Made by a program: the position numbers
NCBI RefSeq assembly: GCF_003334305.1
Contig: NZ_QOWS01000002.1
Strand: one strand, 5' to 3'
DNA length: 64,000 nt
From: Escherichia coli
GTDB lineage: Bacteria > Pseudomonadota > Gammaproteobacteria > Enterobacterales > Enterobacteriaceae
Shown here: positions 60,001-63,000 of the stretch, piece by piece
How positions within the stretch are numbered: the first letter of the stretch is position 1
Layout: each line of letters begins with the position of its first letter

Positions 60001-63000
60001 CTTCTTTGATATCTACCCGTACATAGCCGGGGCGGTCTTCCTGATTGGTAGCTGGCTGCGTTATGACTACGGGCAGTACACCTGGCGCGCGGCGTCCAGC
60101 CAGATGCTGGATCGCAAAGGGATGAACCTGGCGTCGAACCTGTTCCATATCGGTATTCTGGGGATTTTTGTTGGTCACTTCTTCGGTATGCTGACGCCGC
60201 ACTGGATGTATGAAGCCTGGCTGCCGATTGAAGTGAAACAGAAAATGGCGATGTTTGCTGGTGGTGCCAGCGGCGTGCTGTGTCTGATTGGCGGCGTGCT
60301 GTTGCTGAAGCGTCGTCTGTTCAGCCCACGCGTGCGTGCAACCACTACCGGAGCGGATATCCTGATCCTGTCGCTGCTCGTTATCCAGTGCGCGCTGGGC
60401 CTGTTGACCATTCCGTTCTCCGCTCAGCATATGGACGGTAGCGAGATGATGAAACTGGTTGGCTGGGCGCAGTCGGTGGTGACCTTCCACGGTGGCGCTT
60501 CTCAACACCTCGATGGTGTGGCGTTTATCTTCCGTCTGCACCTGGTGCTGGGGATGACGTTATTCCTGCTGTTCCCGTTCTCGCGTCTGGTACACATCTG
60601 GAGCGTACCGGTGGAGTATCTGACACGTAAGTACCAGCTGGTGCGCGCTCGTCACTAAGCGAATTTTAGTTCACATAGACCCTGCTTCGGCGGGGTTTTT
60701 TTATGGGCACGGTGCGGGGTGAGTTGTCGGATGCGCTTCGCTTATCCGACCTACAGGGGAGGATATTGTAGGCCCGGTAAACGTGGTGCCATCGGGCAAA
60801 ATTAGCTCGGAGTAACAGGTTTTGATTATTTAAGGAAGCGATGGTGGTGGGGGAAGGATTACTCAGCGCTGCGCGCTTCGCCCTTCGGGTCGTTGCCTGC
60901 GGCAACGCTCTCTCGCTGGCGCTCAAGTCGAACCTTGGTCGAAGCTTCTCATCCTTCCCCGCTTGGGCAGAATATTTAATTGCGGATTCGTTTGAGAGTT
61001 CACGGACTTTTGAAAGTGATGGTGGTGGGGGAAGGATTCGAACCTTCGAAGTCGATGACGGCAGATTTACAGTCTGCTCCCTTTGGCCGCTCGGGAACCC
61101 CACCACGGGGTAATGCTTTTTACTGGCCTGCTCCCTTATCGGGAAGCGGGGCGCATCATATCAAATGACGCGCCGCTGTAAAGTGTTACGTTGAGAAAAA
61201 TGAACTGGTTGCGTAATTTTCATCCGTAACGGATTAAAGGTAACCAGTTATTTTTGCTGGCGATTAAAGAATAATCGTCCGATTACCGTAAACAAAGACG
61301 CGCTGTGCCAGTACTTTGTATAGCGCACGACTTAAGACGTTTTTCTCGACGTCACGACCTGCGCGCATCATATCTTCAGCTGTGTAGGTATGATCGACAT
61401 GAATAACGTCCTGCATGATGATTGGGCCTTCGTCCAGATTGTCATTCACATAGTGAGCGGTTGCGCCAATAATCTTCACACCACGTTCATAGGCCTGGTG
61501 ATAAGGACGTGCGCCGATAAACGCAGGCAGGAATGAATGGTGAATATTGATGATTTTATTCGGGAAGCGTGCCACAAATTCCGGCGTTAATACCCGCATA
61601 TACTTCGCCAGCACCACATAGTCAGGTTGATAAGCATCAATGGCGTCCGCCATCTTTTGATCGTGCTCGTTGCGGCTTAACCCTTCATGGCTTACCAGCT
61701 CAAACGGAATATCAAAACGCTCAACCAGAGAACGTAAAGTATCGTGGTTACCAATAACTGCCGCGATTTCGACATCCAGGCCGCCGTAATTGGCTTTCAT
61801 CAACAAATCGCCAAGGCAATGCGCTTCTTTAGTGACCAGAATCACTATCCGGCGACGACCGGCAGGATTCAGCTCACGCACGGAGCCTTCTGGCAATGCG
61901 CTATCGAGATCCGCCAGCAGGGTGGAATCATTAAAAATCCCTTCCAGTTCCGTGCGCATAAAAAAGCGCCCGGTACGGTGATCAACAAATTCATTGTTCT
62001 GTACGATATTTAACTCGTGCTTGTAGCAAATATTGGTAATACGTGCGATCAGACCTTTTTGGTCCGGACAAATAGTACGCAGAACTTTACGTTGGAGTGA
62101 ATGCATTGCTGGAAAAACCTTGTTGAGAGTGTTTGCTAAACCGTACCGTCAACCATTATTGGCCGCAGCACTTTTTAAATTTTTTACCTGAACCACAAGG
62201 GCAGGGATCGTTGCGACCAAACTGCGGACGTGTACCGTCAATATAGTACCATTGACCGTTTTCTTTCAAAAATCGCGAACGTTCAATTATTGCACCTGTT
62301 TTACCACCTTCGGTAAATCGAGCAACAAAACTGACAAATCCGATATTGTCGGCGTCCTGCCAACAATGTTCAAATACGGTCAATCCCAACCATTCAGTAT
62401 GCGCAAATCCGGCCATCAATTCGGCACGTAACGCCGCTGCTCCACAAGAGGGATGCCAGGTCTTTATTAAATAATCTGCGTCTTGCATCACAAAAGCGCA
62501 GTAACGCGAACGCATGAGATGTTCTGGATCAGGTGCAACCTTTTCACCAGACACATAAGGGTGGCAACATAGGCTATACTCGACAGCACTACCACAGGGA
62601 CAAAGCTGAGACACAAATAATCTCCCTGGAAACAATAACGGCGTATTAACCGCCTGAGTAGCACTATGTTAACCGAGCAGTAGCGATGTGGCTACGATTG
62701 CATTCCAGGGGAATCTTGCGGGAATAATGAGAAAGATAAAAATAGGGCTGGCGCTGGGATCTGGCGCGGCGAGAGGTTGGTCGCATATTGGCGTTATTAA
62801 TGCGCTAAAAAAAGTGGGTATTGAAATTGATATCGTTGCAGGATGTTCAATTGGTTCGCTGGTGGGCGCGGCCTATGCATGCGATCGATTATCTGCGCTG
62901 GAAGATTGGGTAACCTCTTTCAGTTATTGGGACGTTTTACGCCTGATGGATCTCTCCTGGCAGCGCGGTGGGTTACTGCGCGGCGAGCGTGTCTTCAATC

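Follow-up and report, generated by a model that had tools for sequence, protein, structure and literature searches.

A minimal natural allele of the Escherichia coli tyrT operon with one tRNA-Tyr gene and one RtT repeat, probably derived from a two-tRNA allele by loss of 119 nt

The stretch of Escherichia coli DNA analysed here (64 kb, referred to in its full length as the window) carries dhaKLM … narXL-narK-narGHJI, the tyrT locus and purU-ychJ-rssAB, in this order. A search with ARAGORN revealed only one tRNA gene in the entire 64 kb, a tRNA-Tyr(GTA) gene on the minus strand of the narI-purU interval. The first-pass annotation of the window had likewise counted one tRNA-Tyr gene between narI and purU, and this count was borne out by ARAGORN, by Rfam and by the flanking open reading frames (ORFs); the coordinates proposed at the time, 61010..61094, were wrong, with the end set 10 nt short of the ARAGORN prediction (Table 1). 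The gene specifies a class II cloverleaf with a GTA anticodon, and its 85-nt sequence is identical to both tyrT and tyrV of strain K-12, where both tRNA units end with it, which identifies it as a tRNA-Tyr(GUA) gene of the tyrT/tyrV type. Its surroundings are those of the tyrT operon: the gene lies between purU and narI behind a tyrT promoter, the 159-nt leader/promoter region shows 100% identity to K-12, and the 183-nt tail on the narI side contains a REP-like palindrome in addition to the narI terminator. The tandem tyrT-tyrV doublet, however, was not found in the window, which holds a single tRNA and lacks the 34-nt spacer sequence that separates the two tRNAs of doublet alleles (TCTCAAGTATTACCTCAAAATTTGAATTACCCCT; its final ~10 nt are similar to the leader).

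Table 1. Positions of the tyrT locus features and of the flanking genes in the window
Feature	Position	Strand	Evidence and remarks
narI (respiratory nitrate reductase gamma subunit)	59981..60658	+	225-aa ORF; convergent left neighbour; annotated narI in the identical A28 and WL164 stretches
Unique tail, 183 nt, narI stop to RtT 3′ end	60659..60841	.	100% identical to the K-12 tail
narI intrinsic terminator, within the 183-nt tail	60677..60698	+	terminator-like hairpin and T-run
19-nt copy of the tRNA-Tyr 3′ end (…AATCCTTCCCCCACCACCA on the transcribed strand); RtT 3′ end	60842..60860	-	direct repeat, 178-nt spacing
RtT RNA element (tRNA-linked repeat), sole copy in the allele	60842..60973	-	Rfam RF00391, whole model covered (1-130 of 130), 134.2 bits (gathering score, 45)
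Complete 178-nt tyrT repeat unit (46-nt spacer and 132-nt RtT)	60842..61019	-	unit parsing
tpr-like mini-ORF, MRSFDQGST then TGA (9 codons and stop)	60923..60952	-	ATG at 60952; distal-repeat (R3) version
tRNA-Tyr(GTA), single, 85 nt	61020..61104	-	ARAGORN; Rfam tRNA 61023..61104, 53 bits
tyrT promoter, TTTACA-16 nt-TATGAT, then GC-rich discriminator	61155..61182	-	10/12 consensus match
purU (formyltetrahydrofolate deformylase)	61264..62106	-	280-aa ORF; upstream neighbour on the same strand as the tRNA; annotated purU in A28 and WL164

The single tRNA is followed by a single repeat unit. Exactly two copies of the 19-mer TGGTGGTGGGGGAAGGATT exist in the window, one at 60842..60860 and the other, as part of the tRNA gene, at 61020..61038, while no occurrence was obtained in 100 shuffles even when 2 mismatches were allowed; the position first reported for the copy was thus correct. 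Identity around the copy extends over 21 contiguous nt, or over 25 nt with one mismatch. The start-to-start distance between the copy and the tRNA 3′ end is 178 nt, which is the canonical tyrT repeat period, and not the ~168 nt downstream that had been given before, since the tRNA coordinate used then was shifted by 10 nt. The suggestion that such a copy is the hallmark of an rtT/tpr-type repeat was confirmed by the match to RF00391 (134 bits), which covers the covariance model in full length above the gathering score, and in A28 and WL164 the RefSeq annotation of the same stretch reads "RtT sRNA, processed from tyrT transcript". The predicted fold of the element was modestly better than that of shuffled sequences (z = -1.73); taken alone, it would not be persuasive evidence of structure, and the family membership rests on the covariance-model match.

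Such tRNA-linked repeats (TLR) have 18-19 nt in common with the upstream tRNA or rRNA, at the 3′ end of the latter (PMC8144298), and by this definition the element in the window qualifies with 19 of 19 identical positions. By the count of Rudd 1999 given in PMC8144298, the family comprises 22 members at 10 loci in K-12. No function has been established for these repeats, and the starvation phenotype originally credited to rtT has since been attributed to a nearby ORF (PMC8144298); the current version of PMC10542128 has no RtT or tyrT content. The window copy immediately follows a tRNA gene, is oriented like the tyrT transcript and ends in 19 nt equal to the tRNA 3′ end, and we found no feature that would distinguish it from the rest of the family.

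The K-12 locus is considerably larger. Its transcribed order is promoter, tRNA, a divergent RtT, the 34-nt spacer, tRNA, three 178-nt RtT units and the 183-nt tail, and the annotation accordingly lists 2 tRNAs and 4 RtTs, one of them divergent and located between the tRNAs. The earlier statement that K-12 has two tRNA-Tyr genes and several repeats was therefore accurate, and the reference strain does not share the single-tRNA arrangement. From the narI stop to the purU stop, the window measures 605 nt compared with 1255 nt in K-12. The deficit is thus 650 nt, which corresponds to one 294-nt tRNA period and 2 × 178-nt repeats, and not the ~470 nt estimated in the first reading. In the promoter/leader, the 85-nt tRNA, the 178-nt period, the 19-nt shared end, the 183-nt tail and the narI and purU flanks, the two loci are identical or nearly so, whereas the window has 1 tRNA and 1 RtT instead of 2 and 4 and lacks the 29-aa tpr ORF. 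Textbooks have covered the tyrT locus and its 178-nt repeats since the 1970s, and the K-12 tyrT-tyrV operon with its rtT/tpr repeats was reportedly described by Egan & Landy (1978), Rossi et al. (1981) and Altman et al. (1981). A further reference on this operon is Bosl & Kersten 1991, which both PMC3318445 and PMC8144298 cite.

The mini-ORF within the repeat unit had been read as MRSFDQGST followed by TGA, and this reading held up. Since it stops after 9 codons, the ORF does not qualify as tpr, the gene of a 29-aa protamine-like protein. Inspection of the K-12 repeats revealed three states of this ORF: the first distal repeat (R1) is the only one that encodes the 29-aa Tpr, R2 reads MRSFD with a TAA at codon 6, and R3 reads MRSFDQGST with a TGA at codon 10. 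Codon 10 is CGA in R1, in agreement with the first-pass account of Tpr and its length, and TGA in the window, a difference that could be taken for a fresh CGA-to-TGA nonsense mutation inactivating tpr in this strain. This was one of the two explanations initially offered for the ORF, the other being that it belongs to a different repeat. Only the latter stood. Between the window unit and K-12 R3 there are 5 differences, confined to the first 42 nt; from position 43 to the end, TGA included, the two match completely. The same TGA was present in every single-repeat allele examined (A28, WL164, YZMc10-2, UTAK-1, strain 48 and 2012C-4227) as well as in both repeats of strain M8. As K-12 R3 and all these single-repeat alleles share it, the TGA is not a new nonsense mutation, and we regard an inactivation specific to this strain as virtually out of the question. 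The mini-ORF with its TGA is rather the normal distal-repeat version, the tpr-bearing R1-type repeat being simply absent from the allele.

To trace the origin of the single-tRNA allele, we compared it with those of its relatives. The adjacent 25 kb matched WL164 and TUM12355 best (99.9%), and the nearest relatives in the collection were A28, with one tRNA, and WL164, with two, each ~99.93% identical to the window over 40-48 kb. The window may thus have inherited its deletion together with A28 or acquired it on its own. Over 1,941 nt (59960..61900), the window equals the WL164 sequence (2 tRNAs, 1 RtT) minus exactly 119 nt, with zero other differences, and the WL164 intergenic sequence without its 119-nt period is exactly that of the window. 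The gap corresponds to the 85-nt tRNA plus the 34-nt spacer. The prefix and suffix that are identical to WL164 overlap by 88 nt, i.e., by the tRNA repeat, so that the breakpoint may lie anywhere within the repeated tRNA. A whole repeat period is therefore missing, the breakpoint falls inside perfect identity and there is no other scar, which indicates a homologous deletion between tandem tRNA genes. The proposal of a recombination between the tandem copies, made in the first-pass annotation, is thereby supported. The allele with 2 tRNAs and 1 RtT is common (WL164, TUM12355, IAI1, SE11, YZMc10-2) and has the 119-nt tRNA-plus-spacer period that is missing from the window, the likeness being otherwise base-for-base over 1.9 kb in WL164. 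It is this allele (as in WL164, IAI1 and SE11), and not a K-12-like one, that is the immediate progenitor.

An exact difference of one period is also what an assembly artefact would produce if two tandem tRNA-Tyr genes of the source genome had been collapsed into one, and the closest match of the adjoining 25 kb (WL164/TUM12355) indeed has two tRNAs. However, the window allele is present at 100% identity in the complete genome of A28, isolated from an echidna in Australia, which otherwise differs from the window by ~30 mismatches over 48 kb and in ldr copy number. The tandem junction is likewise missing from hundreds of independent complete genomes. Moreover, the 34-nt spacer, which is unique, would have to be lost completely in a collapse, the 85-nt repeat is presumably shorter than typical reads, and the two 536-nt tandem ldr/rdl units of the window (44111..44712) were resolved, which argues that tandem repeats were not generally collapsed in this assembly. 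We therefore consider a collapse quite unlikely and the loss of one tRNA gene from the chromosome the far better explanation.

This loss is most likely recurrent, judging by the haplotypes involved. A second singlet haplotype, found in 2012C-4227 and UTAK-1, is distinguished by one additional T and a G>A substitution in the spacer and equals the doublet haplotype of YZMc10-2 minus the same 119 nt, and strain 48 represents a third singlet background (6 mismatches). That two singlet haplotypes can each be obtained from a doublet haplotype of its own by removal of 119 nt points to repeated deletion. A separate case is M8, whose allele (883..1324 of the extracted stretch) comprises 1 tRNA and 2 RtTs, a 179-nt repeat of the YZMc10-2 type followed by a 178-nt repeat of the WL164 type. 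Both repeats correspond to haplotypes seen singly elsewhere, and their presence in one allele suggests that exchange takes place not only within alleles but also between them.

The frequency of the arrangement was determined directly in 5,426 complete E. coli genomes with a junction probe composed of the shared 3′ end, the 34-nt spacer and the 5′ part of the tRNA. The tandem-tRNA junction was present in 4,832 genomes and absent from 594 (10.9%). In the six to seven junction-less genomes listed in a spread sample, one or two tRNA-Tyr matches were obtained per genome, in line with the tyrT locus and tyrU together. A second probe of 255 nt, which demands contiguity of promoter, tRNA and RtT, matched at most 197 of the 5,426 genomes (3.6%), a number that is an upper bound because rare genomes in which a standard RtT separates two tRNAs may be counted in it. 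The other ~400 singlets have no RtT behind the tRNA; in AVS0283, for example, a lipid-type gene cluster follows directly. It should be noted that a 175-nt query (45-nt leader, tRNA and 45-nt spacer) proved unfit for counting singlets, as doublets reached exactly 80% coverage owing to the resemblance between the last ~10 nt of the spacer and the leader. Similarly, a 621-nt locus query could not separate the architectures, since BLAST pieces of doublet genomes were joined, and a flank-only query was used instead. Applied to a systematic sample of 60 genomes, the latter revealed 8 architectures with 1-3 tRNAs and 0-5 RtTs. The K-12 type (2 tRNAs and 4 RtTs) and the 2/1 type were each found in 12 genomes, followed by 2/3 (9 genomes), 2/2 (8 genomes), 2/5 (4 genomes), 2/0 and 1/1 (3 genomes each) and 3/2 (1 genome), and in the remaining 8 genomes narI and purU were too distant to be joined. 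The arrangement in the window is thus ordinary rather than unusual, as about 1 in 10 complete E. coli genomes shares it in some form.

As unequal exchange yields duplications and deletions symmetrically, and as the 3-tRNA allele demonstrates that gains occur, the single tRNA could in principle be ancestral and the E. coli doublets the product of later duplication. In a scan of species-representative genomes, the RtT motif was found at 55 loci of other Enterobacterales genera and in no record titled Escherichia, so that these other genera served as outgroups. Among the RtT-bearing loci that were scanned for tRNAs, 33 of 36 carried two tandem tRNA-Tyr genes, and doublets prevail within E. coli as well (89% of genomes). 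Furthermore, the 34-nt spacer is a unique sequence that is not derivable from a singlet allele, so a doublet cannot be regenerated once it has been lost, and two singlet haplotypes each equal a different doublet haplotype minus 119 nt. An ancestral singlet is consequently very improbable. Both the outgroup doublets and the unique spacer argue that the doublet is the ancestral state and the singlet the derived one.

Collectively, we regard it as highly probable that the region represents a minimal natural form of the E. coli tyrT operon, consisting of the promoter, one tRNA-Tyr(GTA), one 178-nt RtT repeat and a 183-nt tail running into the convergent narI terminator, and that this allele was derived from the allele with 2 tRNAs and 1 RtT by a 119-nt loss. 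The 119-nt period would have been lost by homologous unequal crossing-over or by replication slippage. The remaining difference from K-12 probably reflects a similar copy-number change among the 178-nt repeats, which share the 19-nt end of the tRNA; the K-12 surplus consists of the divergent RtT between the tRNAs and two further distal RtTs. Unequal exchange between tandem tRNA genes is a classic observation, and su3/supF genetics of the 1970s reportedly yielded singlet derivatives of the tyrT doublet that arose by unequal recombination (Russell et al. 1970, J Mol Biol). As in the window, one of two tandem identical tRNA-Tyr genes was lost in them by homologous exchange; those singlets, however, were laboratory segregants of transducing phages and K-12, whereas the window carries a natural chromosomal allele found in ~4-11% of complete genomes. 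The layout of the locus, its difference of exactly 119 nt from a doublet allele, the frequencies in the population and the state in the outgroups are direct observations; the molecular route (RecA-dependent crossover or slippage), the expression and processing of the transcript and phenotypic neutrality are matters on which we infer rather than observe. In the strain at hand, tRNA-Tyr1 would be expressed from the one gene described here plus tyrU elsewhere, and the strain total, which includes tyrU from outside the window, is most likely 2 tRNA-Tyr genes rather than 3.

The locus and its copy-number instability were already known, and the allele is an ordinary natural variant whose significance beyond annotation hygiene is small. 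What our analysis adds is a rough census, with ~11% of genomes lacking the tandem junction, ~3.6% having the window layout and at least 8 architectures. In practical terms, the K-12 "tpr" ORF is missing from this strain, and K-12-based coordinates or primers for rttR, tpr and tyrV are not transferable to it. A more far-reaching idea is that the copy numbers of tRNA-Tyr (1-3) and RtT (0-5) constitute a rapidly switching dosage polymorphism under selection and not neutral repeat noise. Such a polymorphism would be consistent with the recurrent, haplotype-independent singlets, but these can be explained without it, and we give the idea little credence. Were dosage indeed selected, the host supply of tRNA-Tyr could be important in the presence of defence systems that deplete this tRNA; additional tRNA-Tyr overcomes retron-Eco7 defence in a manner dependent on promoter strength (PMC11555353). 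Alternatively to tRNA dosage, the RtT units may act as titrators of some factor.

Several further observations were made in the window and at the loci of its relatives. Two rdlD antitoxin matches (44111..44176 and 44647..44712, plus strand, 536 nt apart) mark a tandem pair of ldr/rdl type I toxin-antitoxin units in the kdsA-chaA interval. The unit count is two in the window and one in WL164, and A28 has three annotated Ldr toxin genes, which makes this a second tandem-repeat copy-number polymorphism of the window. The sRNA family C0299 (RF00119) gave a full-length match of 112 bits at 5415..5493 on the plus strand.

In ATCC 25922 and AVS0283, a ~7-kb lipid-type cluster of 7 genes is located between narI and the tyrT locus (coordinates within the extracted stretches of these strains, 5603..5620, 24046..30927 and 6095..6112). 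It encodes a KAS III-like protein, an epimerase, an MBL hydrolase, an F390-synthetase-like protein, a PAP2 phosphatase, a sterol desaturase and an acyl-CoA desaturase. A distance of 16 nt separates the end of the final coding sequence from the RtT 3′ end in ATCC 25922 and from the 3′ end of the single tRNA in AVS0283, so that the island boundary coincides with the shared 19-nt tRNA/RtT end. Some other strains carry an IS621 (IS110 family) or IS4-family insertion in the narI-purU interval, adjoining RtT/tRNA units. Finally, the RtT core motif is widespread in Enterobacterales, among them Enterobacter, Klebsiella, Citrobacter, Salmonella arizonae and diarizonae, Serratia, Erwinia, Pantoea and Buttiauxella, with 1-3 copies per locus at a spacing of ~150-355 nt.
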